Of a stretch of DNA of 30,712 nucleotides, positions 1-26,597 are shown in pieces. Each line of letters begins with the position of its first letter. Within the stretch, counting starts at the first letter, position 1. Location: positions 1-30,712 of the IMG/VR virus record IMGVR_UViG_3300047493_000037. One strand, written 5' to 3'. The notes beneath the pieces are model-generated. The model was not told where the DNA came from. It saw nothing but the letters and a program-made list of their open reading frames with translations, and searched no databases. Source of the stretch: a virus (taxonomy: Duplodnaviria > Heunggongvirae > Uroviricota > Caudoviricetes). A program made the translations under genes and the position numbers.

Positions 1-1
1 T

Positions 2-58
2 GCTCAATGGGTCCCAAAGAATCGTAAGTATGCAGGAGAAGATTGGGTGACATGGTAA
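2..58 (+). CDS. 3' end of a hypothetical protein (partial, ...AQWVPKNRKYAGEDWVTW*)
   Basis: Frame is open from the window edge to TAA at 56-58 and overlaps the ATG (52) of the next small ORF. Hand translation. Confidence 0.5.
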   Translation, partial: AQWVPKNRKYAGEDWVTW

Positions 59-213
59 ACGTGGACACAGATATCGACCTTCAAAAAATGAGGTGGAACG
101 TGCTCATGCTTCTTGTGAAGCTAGATTTGTACCCTAGCATACCATTGGGTGATGGCATATGGCCAGCTAGCAAATATTCTATGCAGTATAAGGAATGGTA
201 TGCCGCGCGTTAA
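52..213 (+). CDS. 53-aa microprotein, helix-motif family member (MVNVDTDIDLQKMRWNVLMLLVKLDLYPSIPLGDGIWPASKYSMQYKEWYAAR)
   Basis: Not in the ORF track. ATG 52 overlaps the upstream gene end, AGGAG lies upstream, and TAA 211-213 overlaps the next gene start. Shares a motif with its neighbours. Confidence 0.7.
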   Translation: MVNVDTDIDLQKMRWNVLMLLVKLDLYPSIPLGDGIWPASKYSMQYKEWYAAR

Positions 214-331
214 TTATCTGTTTTATGGAAATCCAATAACTGAAACGGAGCAAGATTACAACGCTAGAATGCACTTGAAGCAACTATTGTCAAACTTAGG
301 TTTACGCCGACGTAACTATGATTTAACTTAG
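200..331 (+). CDS. 43-aa microprotein, helix-motif family member (MPRVNYLFYGNPITETEQDYNARMHLKQLLSNLGLRRRNYDLT)
   Basis: Track ORF 149..331. ATG 200 is preferred because AAGGA lies just upstream and it avoids a long overlap with 52..213. Confidence 0.7.
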   Translation: MPRVNYLFYGNPITETEQDYNARMHLKQLLSNLGLRRRNYDLT

Positions 332-370
332 GGGTGGGAGGGGCTTCAATGCTCTCAGGAAAGAACAAAG

Positions 371-601
371 ATGAAGATATCAAGGTATTCAAGACGCTTC
401 CACGATCCGTGGGGTAGCAAGCAAGGCAACCGCTGCGGAACGATAATCAAGTTTCAGTTTCAGGCTGGAAAGATTATGCTTGAGAAAGAAGAAGGTTCTG
501 TGCACGACGGCTACCACATAGACACAGTGAGCGTACTTGAGTCTACGCACAAGAAGTTTGTTCGCACCGGTAAGAACTCCTCGGAGAAGTTAAGAAGATG
601 A
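371..601 (+). CDS. hypothetical protein, 76 aa
   Basis: ORF track; AGGA upstream; ATGA overlap with the next gene. No recognised motif. Confidence 0.6.
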   Translation: MKISRYSRRFHDPWGSKQGNRCGTIIKFQFQAGKIMLEKEEGSVHDGYHIDTVSVLESTHKKFVRTGKNSSEKLRR

Positions 602-795
602 AAAGCACAAAGTTTGGATCAGAGTATGCACTAAGAAGATTCTTAGCAAAACTAGGAGTTAAGTCCACCATCTGGGGCCTAGAGATGCAACTTAGAGACA
701 TGCACATTAAGTTGGCACAGAACTCTGGCATGCCCAATAACATCATCATGAACCCGCATGTCTACAATGAAATTGTAAAACACCTTAAGAAGTAA
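598..795 (+). CDS. 65-aa microprotein, helix-motif family member (…EYALRRFLAKLGVK…)
   Basis: ORF track; ATGA coupling to the previous gene; carries the shared LxxFLxKLGV motif. Confidence 0.7.
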   Translation: MKSTKFGSEYALRRFLAKLGVKSTIWGLEMQLRDMHIKLAQNSGMPNNIIMNPHVYNEIVKHLKK

Positions 796-910
796 CTCGA
801 TGAGTTTGCAGGATTATCATCAGGAAGTTTCTTAGCTCGATCTTGTGAAAGAGAGCTACTAGCTCGTGGTGGTCGCCGTTAACATCAATCTTATCGATGT
901 GGTTTTCCAT
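785..910 (-). CDS. 41-aa microprotein (MENHIDKIDVNGDHHELVALFHKIELRNFLMIILQTHRVTS)
   Basis: Not in the track. Hand-translated; AGGA Shine-Dalgarno before ATG 910 and an extended -10 element (TGcTAAGAT) at 953-961. Confidence 0.65.
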   Translation of the reverse strand: MENHIDKIDVNGDHHELVALFHKIELRNFLMIILQTHRVTS

Positions 911-952
911 AATGATTCCTTTGCTAAAGCTACTTTGCGCAGCTATACTTCT

Positions 953-961
953 ATCTTAGCA
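953..961 (-). promoter_or_regulatory. extended -10 promoter-like element TGcTAAGAT
   Basis: Minus-strand motif in the gap upstream of 785..910. Confidence 0.45.
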
Positions 962-971
962 GGAATTTAAG

Positions 972-1100
972 CTAACTTGTTATTGTCCAAGGTCCAGTGA
1001 CGTGTACTACGTTTAACTTAATCATGAACATAAGTAGAGACCATCTTGCTTGATCTTGCTTTGCCTTATCTATTGGGCATGTACTTATTTTTTGTCCCAT
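972..1100 (-). CDS. 42-aa microprotein, helix-motif family member (MGQKISTCPIDKAKQDQARWSLLMFMIKLNVVHVTGPWTITS)
   Basis: Not in the track. ATG 1100 has AGGAAGGA upstream, overlaps the end of the upstream minus-strand gene, and stops at TAG 972-974. ARWSLLMFMIKLNV closely resembles MRWNVLMLLVKLDL of 52..213. Confidence 0.7.
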   Translation of the reverse strand: MGQKISTCPIDKAKQDQARWSLLMFMIKLNVVHVTGPWTITS

Positions 1101-9653: not shown

Positions 9654-10286
9654 ATGCCAAATACCGGTTTTGATAATTCACCAGGCTTTTCAGAAAATCT
9701 AGTTAACAATGTTGCTAGTAACGTTAGCGGCATTTTCTCCTTAAGGCCAAATGCAAAGTTTATGAGTGGTGCTCGCTGCACGCTCAAGATAAATGGCAAA
9801 CTTGTTGGTTTCGCGTTCGGTATTAGCTGGACAATTAATACTATGGTAACAGAGATCAATACCGTAGATGACTATTTACCATATGAACTTGCACCACAAA
9901 GAGTAACAGTTGAAGGTACCATCTCTGCTCTACACATTCCAGGCGTAAGCGCCAACACAGAAGGATGGCAGCCGAATGTGTTGTCATTCTTATTTGCCCC
10001 ATACATATCTATTGAAGCTAGAGATGAAGCAACTAACCAGATTATCTTTGCAACAGATAAAGCAATGGTAGTAACTAGAAGTGAAGAGTTAAGGGTTGAG
10101 CAACTCTCTAATGTAACTATTCGTTGGAGAGCAATTGGCTATATTGACGAACAAACTCCTACGCCTTTGCATAACTATAATCAACCAAATAATAACTTGA
10201 ATAGTCCACCTACAAGTCAAACTAACCCTGTTACCAGCGCAATCTCTGGCGCAGCCTCTGCTATCGCCAACGCAGTTGGCTTGTAA
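9654..10286 (+). CDS. tail tube paralogue 3 (minor tube / tube initiator)
   Basis: FMSGARCTLKINGKLVGF...INTVDDYLPYELAPQRVTVEGTIS aligns with tubes 1 and 2; N- and C-terminal extensions. Confidence 0.75.
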   Translation: MPNTGFDNSPGFSENLVNNVASNVSGIFSLRPNAKFMSGARCTLKINGKLVGFAFGISWTINTMVTEINTVDDYLPYELAPQRVTVEGTISALHIPGVSANTEGWQPNVLSFLFAPYISIEARDEATNQIIFATDKAMVVTRSEELRVEQLSNVTIRWRAIGYIDEQTPTPLHNYNQPNNNLNSPPTSQTNPVTSAISGAASAIANAVGL

Positions 10287-19484: not shown

Positions 19485-22400
19485 ATGGCGTCACAGATTC
19501 AAATTCAGAGCTTTAATCAGTTTCTAGGTGCGATGATTAGAACAATCATTGCAAACACTCCACTTAACGACGTTAACCAAGGATCAGTTCTCCTAACGAT
19601 TCTTGAAGCGGCGGCAGCTAATGACTTTGAAAACAATGCTGCAATCTTAAGTTTGCTAAATCTACTGAATATCAGTACGGTTTCTGGTAGTGACTTAGAT
19701 AATAGAGCTGCTGACTTTGGTTTGACTCGTAATGCTGCAACTAAAGCCTCTGGCAACATTACGATATACAACACCAGCATCACTAAGCAAAGTTCTAGTT
19801 TGTACATTATCAAGCCCGCACCCATTGCAGGACAGACAGTCCTATACGTTAATGATACGACTGATTGGTCTGCTTCTGGAACTCTTTATGTAGGCAGAGG
19901 AACGACTCAGTTTGAAGGTCCAATTCCTTATAGTTCTATAAACGTGTTTCCGACCTATTCTCAGATTAATCTCTCAACGGCGTTGCAGAACAACCATCTC
20001 ATCTCGGACACCGTTATAAACTCCCAGGGTCAGCCGGATCGCATTATCGCGGCTGGTACGATCGTCAAGATCCCCGCAAATAATCAATCGCCTGAGATCG
20101 ATTATAGCACCCTCAGAGACGCCGTTTTACCTGCCGGTGAGACACAGGTCACAAACATAAACGCTATCGCTCTAGTTGCTGGATCAATCGGTAACGCACC
20201 AATTAACAGCATCACCCAATTTAACACATCTCCTTTCACAGGAGCTGGAGTATCTAATACTTCGGCCTTTTCCGGCGGCAATGACGTCGAGACTGACCAA
20301 GAACTAAGAGACAGAATCAACTCATACCCTAACACTCTAGCTAGAGGAACAGAGGGTGCTATTCTTGCCGCAGTAGAGCAAGTTTCTGACTCAGATGACA
20401 ATAAGCAGGTAGCCTCTGCTATTATCGCGGAACCTGCCGCAGTTGACGAGCCATCTATCCTATATATTGACGATGGTACGGGGTTCCAACCCTCTTATGC
20501 TGGTCAATCAGTCGATACACTTCTTACTAATGCTACTGGTAAAGAGGAGTTTTTACAACTTGCCAATTATCCAGTAACTAGACCACAAGTAATTAATACA
20601 GGTACTGGCCCATTTGCATTGCTAGATGGTTCATTCTTAAGAGTTGCTGTTGATGGAACTACAGAAGAGATATTCTTTTCAACTACTGACTTCGTTAATA
20701 TCTCTTCTGCTCAAGTTGCAGAAGTTGTTGTAGCTATTAACAAGCAATCAACTAATTTTAGCGCTAGATTGACCAACAATTCTGCAAATATTTTGCTTTA
20801 TCCACAGGCATTTGATGCCGAAATAATTCAAGTATTACCACTACAGACCAATGATGATCCTGCATTGAATGCAAATGCGTTGTTTGAGTTCCCTGTTACT
20901 GAGTTTTCTTTTATTGCTCTATTCCAAAATAGCACAAGACTTAGAGAAAAAACCATTACAGCTCAACTTGAAACAACAGGATTTGCATTCTGGAACATCA
21001 CCGGTCCAGGCGATTTAGCTATATCTGTTGATGGAACCCCAGAGCAAGATAGAGCCTTTAGTCTAAGTAACTTTCCAGGCGCATCTTCATTTTCTTCTTT
21101 AACTCTTGCTGATTGGGTCACTGCCTTTAATCAACAATTTGCTGGCATCACAGCTGTGGCAACTGCTAACCAAACAATGCAGATCAACTCTAATCAAGGT
21201 GGATCTAACTCTTCATTGTTAATCACTGGTGGTTCATTGCTGTTGAACTTATTCCCTATTCAACCGTTAAGTGCTGTTGGTCAGACTGGTCAATTCCTAC
21301 TAAATAGGCAGACGGGCAACCTTCAAATCTTAACAACTATAAATCCTGGCGATGATATCACTGCTGGCACAACTGATGCAAAAGGTTTCGTAGTATCTGC
21401 TGCATCTGCTAGCGGTACATATTCGCTATCTACTGATAGTTCGGGGCGTCCAGCTGAGGCAATCGTTGTTGCAGATTCAACCTATTGCAATAAGCGCACT
21501 CTTAATGCGGCAATTGGAACCACACTCACAATTAGTAATCCAAGTGGAAACATTATGAGAATAATGTCTAGTTCACTTACTGCTTTGGTTACATTACTAC
21601 CTGGTGATTTCATCTTTACGCCAGTGCGCACCACAGCATGGCTATCAGCGGGAAATACTGGCCTATTTAAGATTGTCGACAAGGGAAGTCATACTGCCGC
21701 AGGCGTAGACACGTATGTTGACGTCATGAATCCAGCTTCCAACATCACTCCTCAAACAGTAACAGTAGCTGATCCTGCAGACGTGCAAGCATTCTCTACG
21801 AATGGCTATCCACAAATCTGGTTTGGCTCGTTCACTCCAAATCCTCCATTAGCAACTATTGATGATATTGTGGCATCATTCAACAATGACCTAATTAATG
21901 TTATTGCTAGCGTTTATCACTCAGATGCTATCAAACTTACATCAACTACTGAACAAGGTGGAAGCATTGCGATCCCTGTAGTTGTTGGTAATGCATTGGG
22001 GCTATTTACTCCAACAAACACAGCTCAATTCGGCAATCCATCTGAAATTGCAAGTATCGTTTCTCAAAAGAGCTTACTAACCCACTTTAAGATTGCACAA
22101 CCCACTAACAAAGACACATTCTTAAATAGACAAGTCTTCACAGATTCAAAAGGTGCACTAACGTCTAATGCAATCCCAGCAGCACCTCCATATACTGCAA
22201 CATACAGTGAAACTCTACAATCTTCTGGTGTACTAAACACTAGCTATGTAGATTATGACAGCATTGTTTCTTTCACAAGAGGGAACAATAGAGACCAACT
22301 TAGAAGCGTGGCAGCATTAATAGCTGGAGACGAATTAGGTACCCAGGAAGCATTAGCGAGAACTAGTCTAGATCACACTGTTGGCGATGAATTTGAAATC

Positions 22401-25400
22401 GTTAAGCCACTACAAATTTCAGCGACTGACACTATCGTTGTCATCGTAGACGAAAACCCTGAACAGAACACGATAAATATTCCTATGTCAAGAACTGGAC
22501 AAGTAAACTCTGGTTCTAACTCAATGACGTTTATTCCAACCTCTACTGAATTCTCTGCTAATGATTATGACCATGATCAAGCAGCTCCGCCTGTTGGCAT
22601 TGACTTTTCTAACGCTAATGTATGGAGCACAACGCTAAACAACACTAATTTTTCTGACTATGCTGTTTGGTCTAGATCTAGAAACTGGTATGCCTCAGGC
22701 GGAGTTGGTTCTGGCGAAGGTGCAATGCTTGTTAGAGCCGTTGAATACGGCCCAAATGGCAACTTCTTACGTTTCAACGTAATGTATCCTACTATTGCTG
22801 CTCAAGCGGCAACTACATCGTTTGTTAACACTCCTTCATTCTCAACGTTTTCATACTATTTTGGGTCTGGCTCTGCTAGAGGAATAGCATTGACGGGTGG
22901 TAACACAATTACTGTTTATGGTCCATACCCAGACACAACTACTAATTTTCCAGATGGAGCATCATCTTCTGGTAATTATTATGACTATGCATTCTCTGCC
23001 GGAAATTTTGCGTCTGTTCAAGTTGGGGATGTAATTAGTGTTACTGGAGCATCTGGAGTATCTACCCCAAATCAAGGGCAATTTAGCGTACAAAATATAT
23101 CTGGAAACACCATTCGTGTACTAAATGTAAATGGTTCTGCTTCTAGTCCAGGTTCACCAGAAATTGATACAGTAACGACAGTAGCAGATGTGCTTGGAAC
23201 ACCTACTGCTTACGGTATTACTACTACTGCAGATACTAGTAGTTCACTAAATGGTAAGTATTTCATTGTCTACGACACAGCAGGATCTGTGGCTGTGTGG
23301 ATTAACGAGTCAGGCACTGCTGCTCAACCTGCAGCTGGCGCAAATAGATATATTATGGTTGGGACTGTTTTAGCCAATGATGATGCCTCAACAGTGGCAA
23401 CTAAAGTGACTAATGCAGTTAACCAAGATAGAGCATTTACTGCTGGAGTAAGTGGACCTCTTGTTACGATAACAAACGTTCAAAATGGTGCTCTTGCAAA
23501 TGGCAATGCTGGAACTTCAGGATTCACAGTGACCACAACCGCTGGAACAAACAACGATTCTCTTTCTGGAAAGTATTTTATTGTCTACGATGCAAATGGT
23601 TCCGTGTCAATTTGGTTTGACGTAGGCAATCAAGGCATTAATGAACCTTTTGATGGTGCAAACAGAGGAATAAGAGTCTACAACTTAAGTCCTGGAGCAA
23701 GTGCTGCAACAGTGGCAAGCGCAATTCAGCAGGCAGTAAACTCTGATTCAGCATTTACTGCAACTTCAACTGGTGATACAGTTACTATTACTAATAACTT
23801 TGACGGTAATGTTACAAGTGGCAACGCAGGAACTTCAGGATTCACAGTAGTATCCACGCCGGGAAGTAAAGCTGGTCCAGAGGCGATTACCAATCCTGTT
23901 GGTGTTAATATTTTCCCACTCACTGGTACATCTGTTTCTAGTATTACTGCAACTATCAACCTTAGTGCCCTAATGAGTGCGACTCCAATAGGTATACCTA
24001 GTTTAACCATTACTAAGTCTACAGAAGAAGATAAGTATGCTTACGCTGGAAATGCTACAGCTCTTGGTTACGGCCACAATCCAGATGATCCTAATGCAGA
24101 TAGTTTTATTGCCATGTTTGATGGGGCAAATTGGGTTAAAACATTTGAGAATGCAAATCCTAACTTCATACTAAAGACTCCTTATACATTACAGGGCGTA
24201 TCGACGATATACTCTATGGATACTGCCCCTAACTTTGATGTTGTGACCAATGGAGAACTATTTAAGCTAATTCCAACTACAGTTCAAAACCTTTATCACC
24301 AGTTAACACAGAAAGCTCTATCACAGTTACCAATTGTAGCTACTGTAAACATTGCAGATGATAGAAAAAACGTTCAGATAAAGTCTAATAAACTTGGATC
24401 TGCTGGTGCAATTGAACTTGTTGGTGGAGCAGGCAATCAGTCAACGATGTATATTCAGACAGAAGCTGAAACAGATACTGATGCTAATGGCAGCGTCCTA
24501 ATCGTAAAAACTCAAGCGTTCCCTGACACATTTAGCGTAGGTGACACAGTATTACTGCAAAACAATGCTGGAGTTCAAAGATTCAATCGTTTAACATCTA
24601 CGGACACAATTGACGTGTTAAGTGCCGGTGTTAATACATTTGAATACACGTATAACGCCAAGACAACAGGGATTAACTCTGGAACACTGTTCACGATAAC
24701 AGATGTTGGCGCATCTTACTCATTACCTGCTGGCTTTGTATGGAGATGGACAGCAACAGATGCAGGAGTATCCTTTGCCGAAGTAAATGCAGGCGATTTA
24801 CTGTACGCGTTCGGATCGTTGTCTGGCTGGGATCATAACAATCAGGTTCATCCATCGGGTGATGCCCAGGTTTCAGGTTTCCCTATTATTCATGTGAATA
24901 TTGGATCAAATTACGTAGATTTGGTCAATCCTTTTGGGATTGCAATGTCTTCTACGGCAGTTGGATCGGGCACTGTGCAGATTTGCCCAACGCCAGCCAT
25001 TAAATGGTATCTTACCCATGCAAATTACACACCAATTGTGAGTATCTCTTCTACTTCAGATGTAGTAACAGTAATCACCTCTGGTCCACACTATCTAAGC
25101 ACTGGAAATACTGTTAATATCCGTGATAGTTTTAACTTACCTGACGGCACATACACAGGGATCACTGTCACTGGGGCTAATACGTTTACTTTTAGTTATT
25201 CAGTAACAGATTTCACTGAAACCAACACTTTTGCTTCTGTAATCATGGGCACATTAACTCCAACGAGATATAGACTACAATCCTTGGGCTTTAATGGTCT
25301 TGTTAGACTTAATGCAGCTAATGGTCAATCACCAAACTTTTTAAGTTGTGGTGTTGCTGTTGATGATTACATACTAATCAGCGGTACAACATTTAGCTCA

Positions 25401-26597
25401 AATAACAATGGACGCTTTAGAGTATTGGCAGTTGATAATAATTCAATAATTCTTATTAACCCACAAGCAAGTGATCAACTAAACACTGTTACCCTGATGA
25501 ACAACATGGACATTAATGTAACCTTTGTCGCTAACACAAACACTGTCACCGGCGTTGCAGGAGCATTCAAGTATGTCGCAGTTGGTAACTGGATTAAGAA
25601 GCAATCAGATCCAGATAGTGCCTATTTACAAGTTTTGAGTCTAAACAATTCCAATCCTGCACTTGCTACCTCTATTACCCTTGGCAGCAACTATACAGGA
25701 TCAGACAATACAACTATTGGCGTTGTATATGACGAAACTCAAAACTATGATCAGGGTGTATATTTGCAAAATGCTTCCGATATACAGATATTTGAAGGCG
25801 ATTCAGTAGTCGAAGGCGATACACTCTTTGTTCAAAACATTGTAGACGCATCTTGGTTCAACATTAGTAACGTAGGAAGTTTTCCTGTGGTTGAATACGG
25901 AACCGAGCCATCTACTTACTTACCATTTATTAGAGTAACGAACGAAGGTGGAGTTGCTCAAACTGATGTGCAAATGTCTGTGAACCCTAATGGGCTTTAC
26001 ACAATAGAAAGTTTGGCTAATAAATTTTATTCAATCAGAGAAGTGACACACACCGTATTAGACGATATTGCGCCCAATCTAAGAGACATCTTTATTACTC
26101 CTTACAGTAGAAGTTATAAGTTTAGTCCATCTAATAATTCGACAATCACCCACCTTGGGAAAATTGGGTACAGTAATGAAGTAACCATTGGAACAGATGG
26201 TTACACTTACTACACAGGTCTTTTACAAAAAGTTCAAAGAATAGTAGATGGATTTGAACCTGATGCAGAAGACTATCCTGGTCAACGTGCAGTTGGAGCA
26301 GCAGTTGAAACTCTTCCTCCTCTTCCGTTTGAACTTAATTTAGCTCTAAATGTAGTTACAAACATTGGTGTAAACCTTGGCGATGTATCTAATAACATCA
26401 AATCGACTATTATTAACTATGTAGAAGGTTTAGGAGTTGGTCAACCTGTGATCCTCTCTCAGATTATTGCTGACGTGCAACAAGTAAAAGGCGTTGCTTC
26501 TGTAGTGTTCACCAATCCTGCACCAAGTACGCCAAGTATAACACTATCTAGCAATGAAAAAGCTATTATTAGCTCTAACAATATCAGTATAGCATAA
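19485..26597 (+). CDS. giant baseplate wedge protein (baseplate J / gp6-like, 2370 aa)
   Basis: N-terminal GSVLLTILEA...LDNRAADFGLTRNAATKASG and GGNDVETDQELRDRI...ARGT; C-terminal RAVGAAV...LGVGQPVILSQIIADVQQVKGV. About 1900 aa of extra beta-rich modules lie in between. Confidence 0.88.
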   Translation: MASQIQIQSFNQFLGAMIRTIIANTPLNDVNQGSVLLTILEAAAANDFENNAAILSLLNLLNISTVSGSDLDNRAADFGLTRNAATKASGNITIYNTSITKQSSSLYIIKPAPIAGQTVLYVNDTTDWSASGTLYVGRGTTQFEGPIPYSSINVFPTYSQINLSTALQNNHLISDTVINSQGQPDRIIAAGTIVKIPANNQSPEIDYSTLRDAVLPAGETQVTNINAIALVAGSIGNAPINSITQFNTSPFTGAGVSNTSAFSGGNDVETDQELRDRINSYPNTLARGTEGAILAAVEQVSDSDDNKQVASAIIAEPAAVDEPSILYIDDGTGFQPSYAGQSVDTLLTNATGKEEFLQLANYPVTRPQVINTGTGPFALLDGSFLRVAVDGTTEEIFFSTTDFVNISSAQVAEVVVAINKQSTNFSARLTNNSANILLYPQAFDAEIIQVLPLQTNDDPALNANALFEFPVTEFSFIALFQNSTRLREKTITAQLETTGFAFWNITGPGDLAISVDGTPEQDRAFSLSNFPGASSFSSLTLADWVTAFNQQFAGITAVATANQTMQINSNQGGSNSSLLITGGSLLLNLFPIQPLSAVGQTGQFLLNRQTGNLQILTTINPGDDITAGTTDAKGFVVSAASASGTYSLSTDSSGRPAEAIVVADSTYCNKRTLNAAIGTTLTISNPSGNIMRIMSSSLTALVTLLPGDFIFTPVRTTAWLSAGNTGLFKIVDKGSHTAAGVDTYVDVMNPASNITPQTVTVADPADVQAFSTNGYPQIWFGSFTPNPPLATIDDIVASFNNDLINVIASVYHSDAIKLTSTTEQGGSIAIPVVVGNALGLFTPTNTAQFGNPSEIASIVSQKSLLTHFKIAQPTNKDTFLNRQVFTDSKGALTSNAIPAAPPYTATYSETLQSSGVLNTSYVDYDSIVSFTRGNNRDQLRSVAALIAGDELGTQEALARTSLDHTVGDEFEIVKPLQISATDTIVVIVDENPEQNTINIPMSRTGQVNSGSNSMTFIPTSTEFSANDYDHDQAAPPVGIDFSNANVWSTTLNNTNFSDYAVWSRSRNWYASGGVGSGEGAMLVRAVEYGPNGNFLRFNVMYPTIAAQAATTSFVNTPSFSTFSYYFGSGSARGIALTGGNTITVYGPYPDTTTNFPDGASSSGNYYDYAFSAGNFASVQVGDVISVTGASGVSTPNQGQFSVQNISGNTIRVLNVNGSASSPGSPEIDTVTTVADVLGTPTAYGITTTADTSSSLNGKYFIVYDTAGSVAVWINESGTAAQPAAGANRYIMVGTVLANDDASTVATKVTNAVNQDRAFTAGVSGPLVTITNVQNGALANGNAGTSGFTVTTTAGTNNDSLSGKYFIVYDANGSVSIWFDVGNQGINEPFDGANRGIRVYNLSPGASAATVASAIQQAVNSDSAFTATSTGDTVTITNNFDGNVTSGNAGTSGFTVVSTPGSKAGPEAITNPVGVNIFPLTGTSVSSITATINLSALMSATPIGIPSLTITKSTEEDKYAYAGNATALGYGHNPDDPNADSFIAMFDGANWVKTFENANPNFILKTPYTLQGVSTIYSMDTAPNFDVVTNGELFKLIPTTVQNLYHQLTQKALSQLPIVATVNIADDRKNVQIKSNKLGSAGAIELVGGAGNQSTMYIQTEAETDTDANGSVLIVKTQAFPDTFSVGDTVLLQNNAGVQRFNRLTSTDTIDVLSAGVNTFEYTYNAKTTGINSGTLFTITDVGASYSLPAGFVWRWTATDAGVSFAEVNAGDLLYAFGSLSGWDHNNQVHPSGDAQVSGFPIIHVNIGSNYVDLVNPFGIAMSSTAVGSGTVQICPTPAIKWYLTHANYTPIVSISSTSDVVTVITSGPHYLSTGNTVNIRDSFNLPDGTYTGITVTGANTFTFSYSVTDFTETNTFASVIMGTLTPTRYRLQSLGFNGLVRLNAANGQSPNFLSCGVAVDDYILISGTTFSSNNNGRFRVLAVDNNSIILINPQASDQLNTVTLMNNMDINVTFVANTNTVTGVAGAFKYVAVGNWIKKQSDPDSAYLQVLSLNNSNPALATSITLGSNYTGSDNTTIGVVYDETQNYDQGVYLQNASDIQIFEGDSVVEGDTLFVQNIVDASWFNISNVGSFPVVEYGTEPSTYLPFIRVTNEGGVAQTDVQMSVNPNGLYTIESLANKFYSIREVTHTVLDDIAPNLRDIFITPYSRSYKFSPSNNSTITHLGKIGYSNEVTIGTDGYTYYTGLLQKVQRIVDGFEPDAEDYPGQRAVGAAVETLPPLPFELNLALNVVTNIGVNLGDVSNNIKSTIINYVEGLGVGQPVILSQIIADVQQVKGVASVVFTNPAPSTPSITLSSNEKAIISSNNISIA
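23244..23860 (+). repeat. internal ~106-aa (318-nt period) duplicated module in the giant wedge protein
   Basis: SLNGKYFIVYD...GNAGTSGFTV vs SLSGKYFIVYD...GNAGTSGFTV; identical 20-mer GGAACTTCAGGATTCACAGT at 23511 and 23829. Confidence 0.9.

Follow-up and report, generated by a model that had tools for sequence, protein, structure and literature searches.

The start of the window (the whole 30,712-nt stretch analysed here, bases 1–30712 of a 176,837-bp IMG/VR virus record that is rated complete) falls within an island of tiny accessory genes in the genome of an uncultivated ~177-kb myophage. The best explanation of these genes is that most of them belong to one clade-specific, fast-evolving modular family. 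Its constant part comprises 13–16 residues, an amphipathic, glycine-capped Leu-rich alpha-helix and the short basic turn after it. The coding content of the window is a contractile-tail structural module of sheath, baseplate and virion proteins. The nearest cultured phage is Myxococcus phage Mx1, which is distant (sheath identity 34%), and nucleotide searches with the window region against 50,697 phage records gave no match.

A sequence-only reading of the window had picked out four small ORFs sharing a helix pattern and a weaker fifth. All five were found with the peptides given there and at exactly the same coordinates. The small genes at the start of the window, with their orthologues in related loci, are:

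1–58, plus strand: 3' end of a small gene (gA) whose start lies beyond the assembly junction, at genome position 176497, with its motif copy, RRIPMLMLLTKLNV, also outside the window; 12 orthologous ORFs with LLxKL[DNKQ]V
52–213, plus strand: gB, ORF 1 of the sequence-only reading, with the divergent motif variant MRWNVLMLLVKLDL at 88–129; 3 orthologous ORFs (related loci including L003 and L007)
200–331, plus strand: gC, ORF 2, with motif ARMHLKQLLSNLGL at 263–304; 3–4 orthologous ORFs (loci including L013 and L023)
371–601, plus strand: gD, a conserved 76-aa gene without the motif, serving as internal negative control; 7 orthologues (E 1e-33 to 1e-38)
598–795, plus strand: gE, ORF 3, a canonical member with the motif at 619–660, then a module resembling residues 231–267 of the major capsid protein; about 11 full-length orthologues
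785–910, minus strand: gF, the weaker fifth ORF, a conserved 41-aa gene with hELKxFhxKLLYxH and its motif site at 809–844; 29 orthologous ORFs
972–1100, minus strand: gG, ORF 4, with a motif variant at 1008–1049; 26 orthologous ORFs, in which residues 1–29 are conserved (MGQK...[KR][YW]xLYMFMxKL)

The claim that each of these ORFs has an SD or a coupled start was confirmed. AGGA-like motifs lie 6–13 nt upstream, ATG 52 overlaps the upstream stop codon (ATGGTAA), ATG 598 shares ATGA with the stop of 371–601, and ATG 200 and ATG 1100 overlap the preceding gene by 14 nt and 16 nt, respectively. Orthologues were sought by tblastn and HMM searches of 75 related loci, which had been retrieved by the adjacent 268-aa virion protein (identity 46–88%). 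In these loci, from uncultivated myophages of ~175 kb, the small ORFs are found again, conserved at the protein level and in unchanged order. Judged by this conservation, all five ORFs are real, syntenic genes that are predicted to be expressed. Their divergence is much more rapid than that of neighbouring genes: in L003, identity is 88% for the 268-aa gene, whereas the motif genes are 42–69% identical (598–795, 42%) or absent (200–331). A coding-potential model trained on long late genes discriminated frames but barely separated small genes from background, and conservation was therefore used as the gene test instead. Scanning positions 1–1800 for promoters and terminators gave a signal no higher than in shuffles. 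Next to the small ORFs, on the minus strand, lie two adjacent and highly conserved genes of 82–84 aa (1085–1339 and 1336–1584, found in 34 and 60 related loci), whose proteins have a common N-terminal Cys motif, 'ILExIVxxDGxC...CxxCP' (pairwise E 3e-4). They are probably tandem paralogues and possibly metal-binding.

The first 170 nt of the contig are repeated at its end (window 1–170, genome 176667–176837), which makes the assembly either circular or terminally redundant. Between the two copies there is a difference of a single G, in a G-run at window position ~44–47. With the extra G of the contig-end copy, gA is fused to 52–213 into a 127-aa ORF with two motif copies, whereas the window copy keeps them apart as two coupled genes. 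As they are also separate in relatives, the coordinates 52–213 are the likelier form; the single-G difference could be a sequencing error or population heterogeneity.

The motif signal from the window alone was borderline, with a best four-way 13-mer score of 81 against 55 ± 8.6 (maximum 80) in 50 other windows; proof was obtained from sequences beyond it. The regular expression of the sequence-only reading had been fitted after the fact and matched only its own four sites genome-wide. An HMM built from its four peptides alone proved too weak (non-seed matches at E ≥ 0.3), and pairwise BLAST among the ORFs of this genome linked just a few of the small ones. The relatives carry a much sharper motif than this genome, where it is more degenerate: their consensus, h-x-L-x-x-LL-x-K-L-G-I-K-S-A-[RK], was found in many otherwise unrelated ORFs on both strands. 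A motif HMM trained on relatives only, and thus independent of this genome, scored 598–795 at 15.0–16.4 bits and 200–331 at 13.6 bits. Genome-wide, it found 12 ORFs at ≥10 bits, compared with none in 20 shuffles. Across five complete genomes, with shuffle counts of 0–0.2, the numbers of motif ORFs at ≥8 bits were:

G000 (this genome): 16 (shuffles 0.2)
G001: 17
G003: 10
G004: 3
G002: 0

G002 is of similar size and closer than G003 on the marker gene, yet has no motif ORFs, which shows a lineage-specific expansion and rules out a compositional artefact. The motif was also not found in Mx1. In a target-decoy run on 15,206 ORFs, 113 ORFs compared with no reversed decoys scored ≥11 bits, and 150 compared with 3 scored ≥9 bits. 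This bears out the earlier claim of an undescribed, expanded family in which a constant helix is combined with unrelated arms, at far more than the four copies first noticed: this genome has at least 14 canonical copies, or about 25–30 counting divergent variants, and more than 100 distinct motif ORFs are spread across the clade.

Within the genome, tandem arrays occupy 161–162 kb, 167–173 kb and the stretch from 175 kb through window position 795. Further motif copies lie across the junction on the plus strand (175.1–176.9 kb). On the minus strand, the arrays at 167–173 kb and 161–162 kb are long and tiled with genes of 46–100 aa, nearly all of which have a similar helix. Interspersed with the small-gene arrays are three paralogous proteins of 150–166 aa on the minus strand (genome 156806–157300, 169249–169749 and 174182–174634; 49–61% identical), for which only a weak PHROG match to a family of unknown function was found. 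Elsewhere, a 195-aa protein (genome 43349–43936; L116:1349–1933) with an internal motif, LLAKLGLK, matched no family and is conserved in G001 alone, the other genome rich in motif copies. In a set of 1.8e9 proteins, the 598–795 family had 128 cluster representatives, for which 'hypothetical protein' was the only source name seen. All are 51–135 aa long except P0119 (1391 aa), in which 'RRLLAxxGIASAEAFG' repeats matched the motif region five times; we judged this to be a different repeat.

Which of the window ORFs belong to the family was decided by hhalign comparison of orthologue profiles built for each gene family. At E ≤ 1e-3, 11 of 55 family pairs were linked, compared with 0 of 110 reversed-profile controls, and the alignments always paired the motif helices, in favour of a common origin of the helix in the different families. 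A canonical group comprises 200–331, 598–795, 175480, 175944, 176346 and a seven-member C-terminal sub-family, 'LCxLLSxLIGTGxF', with links of up to 94% probability (E 2e-7 to 1e-4). Within it, 200–331 was linked to 598–795 at E 1e-4 (58%), to gH at 94% and to famC at 85%. A variant group, 'LxMhhxKL[DN]h', unites 52–213, 972–1100 and gA (links at E 6e-5 to 3e-4), with 52–213 matching 972–1100 at 65% (E 6e-5) and 972–1100 matching gA at 49%. Weaker bridges (E 4e-4 to 1e-3) join the two groups. The motif-less 371–601 had no link to any motif family (P ≥ 0.19), and the best value for 785–910 (P 0.0036) was no better than in reversed controls. By these profiles, 598–795 and 200–331 are clear members. 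ORFs 52–213, which the canonical motif HMM did not match, and 972–1100 are probable members with a divergent variant, in line with their moderate profile scores (E 6e-5 to 4e-4). The fifth, 785–910, is a real gene whose membership is not supported.

The codon usage of the motif is that of a protein element. Among 37 distinct motif copies, third codon positions carried 0.02–0.48 bit compared with up to 2 bits at positions 1–2. Serine was encoded by AGY in 16 cases and TCN in 14, leucine by all six codons, and all copies sat in open frames. As third positions are free, both serine codon families and all leucine codons are used and the frame is always open, the motif is not a DNA element. It is selected at the protein level, and for its canonical form both chance and a DNA repeat can in effect be dismissed.

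Motif proteins have a median length of 60 aa, with the motif centre at 0.31–0.84 of protein length. KLGIKSA is conserved far better than any flank. The motif is C-terminal in famC, gH and gI, many members stop or carry a proline right after SAR, and proteins with two fused motifs exist (the 127-aa contig-end ORF; P0050). An AF2 model of 598–795 has three helices (pLDDT 68, pTM 0.30), of which the motif is the best-predicted element, a helix at residues 5–18 that ends at the glycine (helix 1 and Gly cap). The suggestion that the peptides are membrane-associated was not supported: in all six window ORFs, the Kyte-Doolittle 19-residue mean was ≤1.3 at its maximum, with no transmembrane-length stretch.

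Searches of PHROG and Pfam with the small ORFs and 10 canonical relatives gave no relevant match, nor did Pfam on 20 motif proteins, where no HTH family appeared at E up to 0.1–10. A PDB sequence profile search gave only a chance match at E=2, Foldseek found no PDB match for the 598–795 model (pLDDT 68), and the ESM Atlas gave no usable feature match, only rows with TM<0.5 or short matches. Literature searches found no description of the motif family. Arrays of small early or accessory genes are a feature of large phages, as in the SPO1 host-takeover module and the terminal-repeat genes of Twort-like and T5-like phages. Like these, the genes described here are tightly tiled, 40–100 aa long, with overlapping starts and stops, fast turnover and no database annotation. 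To our knowledge, no single peptide motif runs across the unrelated genes of those arrays. Unlike in terminal-repeat arrays, the motif cluster of G001, which has terminal repeats, lies at 94–103 kb and is not tied to the genome ends. An expanded family of small phage accessory proteins is of a known kind, and its portable helix together with copies of virion-protein segments makes it an unusual variant.

After masking of the motif, matches to large proteins at E ≤ 1e-3 were obtained for 12 of 149 motif ORFs, compared with 1 of 149 reversed queries, and virion-like arms were enriched relative to non-motif small ORFs (odds ratio 4, p 5e-4). The arm targets that could be identified are mostly virion proteins, of which certain pieces are used repeatedly. 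A detectable virion-like arm is present in only about 7–8% of members. Capsid residues 231–267 resemble the C-terminal module of the 598–795 family, and a 598–795 HMM built without capsid proteins matched the capsid protein in 5 of 5 genomes, at residues 231–266 (E 5e-5 to 0.05). Capsid residues 43–74 are copied in the 67078–67374 ORF of this genome and in three ORFs of relatives. In one sub-family only, capsid-like small proteins are colinear with capsid residues 1–75, including an invariant Glu (LQxE|S). Residues 1–22 of the sheath are copied in four relatives and in the 176173 ORF of this genome, and residues 34–68 of a 210-aa tail protein (window 9654–10286) are also reused. The first ~17 codons of the sheath-like 58-aa ORF (genome 176173–176349; L115:16173–16349) are about 80% DNA-identical to those of the sheath gene (window 6019–), and relatives carry equivalent small genes with a sheath N-arm and the motif. 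The similarity starts precisely at the ATG, with unrelated DNA upstream, and is thus not a borrowed promoter. The virion-like arms fit the idea, raised in the sequence-only reading, of adaptors or decoys for a phage partner.

Two further likenesses concern large proteins of this phage. Residues ~459–499 of the head maturation protease (genome 67399–69057; L117:3399–5054) are 61% identical to residues 14–54 of the major head protein (70443–71891; L117:6443–7888), which suggests a common prohead-targeting or cleavage segment. The arm of the 175480–175671 sub-family (relatives at L003:5019–5228 and elsewhere) contains 'G-E-T-D-x-x-L-R-x-R-I', which weakly resembles residues 269–281 of a giant baseplate-J-like protein (window 19485–26597; E 0.1).

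We tentatively favour a modular family built on the helix as a common protein-protein interaction module. The helix would dock to one common partner, or join family members to each other, and the arms would set what each member is brought to, for example assembling virions or binders of the virion segments concerned; several of the arms reproduce terminal or arm segments of virion proteins that this phage encodes. The counterpoint is that a conserved core helix of diverging paralogues gives identical sequence signals without a common partner. In this main rival, which we hold to be somewhat unlikely, the genes are ordinary fast-diverging paralogues of unrelated function, and the helix is what remains of the core, as its structurally most constrained element. 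Paralogue expansion does typically yield tandem arrays and copy numbers that differ by lineage, and sub-families show full-length homology (seven famC members at E 1e-18 to 1e-24; 169941 and 170538 are a pair). Yet the motif stands N-terminally, centrally or C-terminally beside at least 8–10 unrelated arm types, and the contrast between KLGIKSA and its flanks also argues against plain paralogues. Its variable position and the arms taken from capsid, sheath and tail genes require module shuffling, not divergence alone. Comparison across the clade shows the motif as a protein-level module shuffled between contexts, and the family as large, modular and clade-specific, with fast turnover and lineage-variable copy number. 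A docking role of the helix and an anti-defence repertoire, both put forward in the sequence-only reading, are putative. A more specific version of the interaction-module reading, which we regard as unlikely, is a display system, in which the constant helix would be the handle for one partner, of either the phage or the host, and would carry a varying set of short copies of the phage's capsid, sheath and tail segments. The micro-proteins would then act as targeted decoys or adaptors, blocking host immune sensors or rival-phage assembly where these recognise the copied segments, or would enter the virion by way of such segments. Phage decoys and mimics occupy the sites of immune sensors that recognise capsid or tail proteins, and the small proteins with copies of such segments could likewise compete for a binder with the genuine virion proteins; unlike those decoys, only a minority of the members have virion-like arms.

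It is quite improbable that the motif is itself a virion-targeting or maturation-linked signal through which the small proteins would be packaged, for delivery into the host. In T4, the internal proteins (IPI-III, Alt) bear an N-terminal capsid-targeting sequence of about 10 residues that is cleaved at L/I-x-E, the gp21 cleavage site. The motif resembles this sequence as a short conserved peptide common to otherwise unrelated small proteins of a large myophage, and the sub-family colinear with capsid residues 1–75 mimics the N-terminal region of the capsid protein with its conserved Glu, much as T4 targets do around the gp21 site. The head protease C-terminus bears the same capsid segment, and other members begin with the sheath N-terminal arm. 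Against this, it is the arms and not the motif that resemble virion proteins, and most members are without such arms. Whereas the T4 signal is strictly N-terminal and cleaved, the motif is helical, can lie anywhere in the protein and is followed by no consistent cleavage consensus. We consider a small nucleic-acid-binding helix-Gly-helix element, of the HeH/SAP/Rho_N or helix-turn-helix type, very unlikely. Basic residues do follow the glycine, and by eye, as a lead only, L-x-x-x-L-G-I-K is like the 'LAKELGIK' of Rho_N-type domains and like an HTH turn. As in Rho_N, SAP and HeH (PF07498, PF02037), a Leu-rich helix ending in L-G-[IL]-K precedes basic residues, and a small module sits on varied, often phage, proteins. 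However, neither the Rho_N (PF07498) nor the SAP (PF02037) model matched any motif ORF in four genomes (G000, G001, G003 and G006) even at E ≤ 10, and the Pfam and PDB sequence searches likewise argue against this type. The second helix is often absent: as many members end or carry a proline after SAR, there is no second or recognition helix, and an HTH was rejected given the lack of a Pfam HTH match among 20 proteins and the C-terminal motif of famC, gH and gI. A chance or compositional likeness of Leu-rich helices, or a DNA-level repeat (a promoter or mobile cassette) read in one frame, is extremely improbable. The borderline four-way similarity within the window and the after-the-fact regular expression would speak for chance, but shuffle, reversed-decoy and reversed-profile controls were all near zero and the similar-sized G002 has no matches, and a DNA repeat is at odds with the free third codon positions, the two serine codon families and the sheath-like piece that begins at the ATG. 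Such an origin could apply only to the membership of 785–910 and, less so, to that of 52–213 and 972–1100.

Phage genomes are rich in tiny unannotated genes that are mostly dismissed as uncertain ORFs; here, over a hundred of them across a clade are united by one protein-level motif. The motif permits a natural classification of the variable arms, and its profile can serve to annotate metagenomic phage contigs, in which such genes often escape gene callers. With one bait peptide, it also offers a handle for seeking a shared partner. Should the virion-like arms be functional mimics, the family would represent a simple modular route to targeted decoys or virion-directed cargo.
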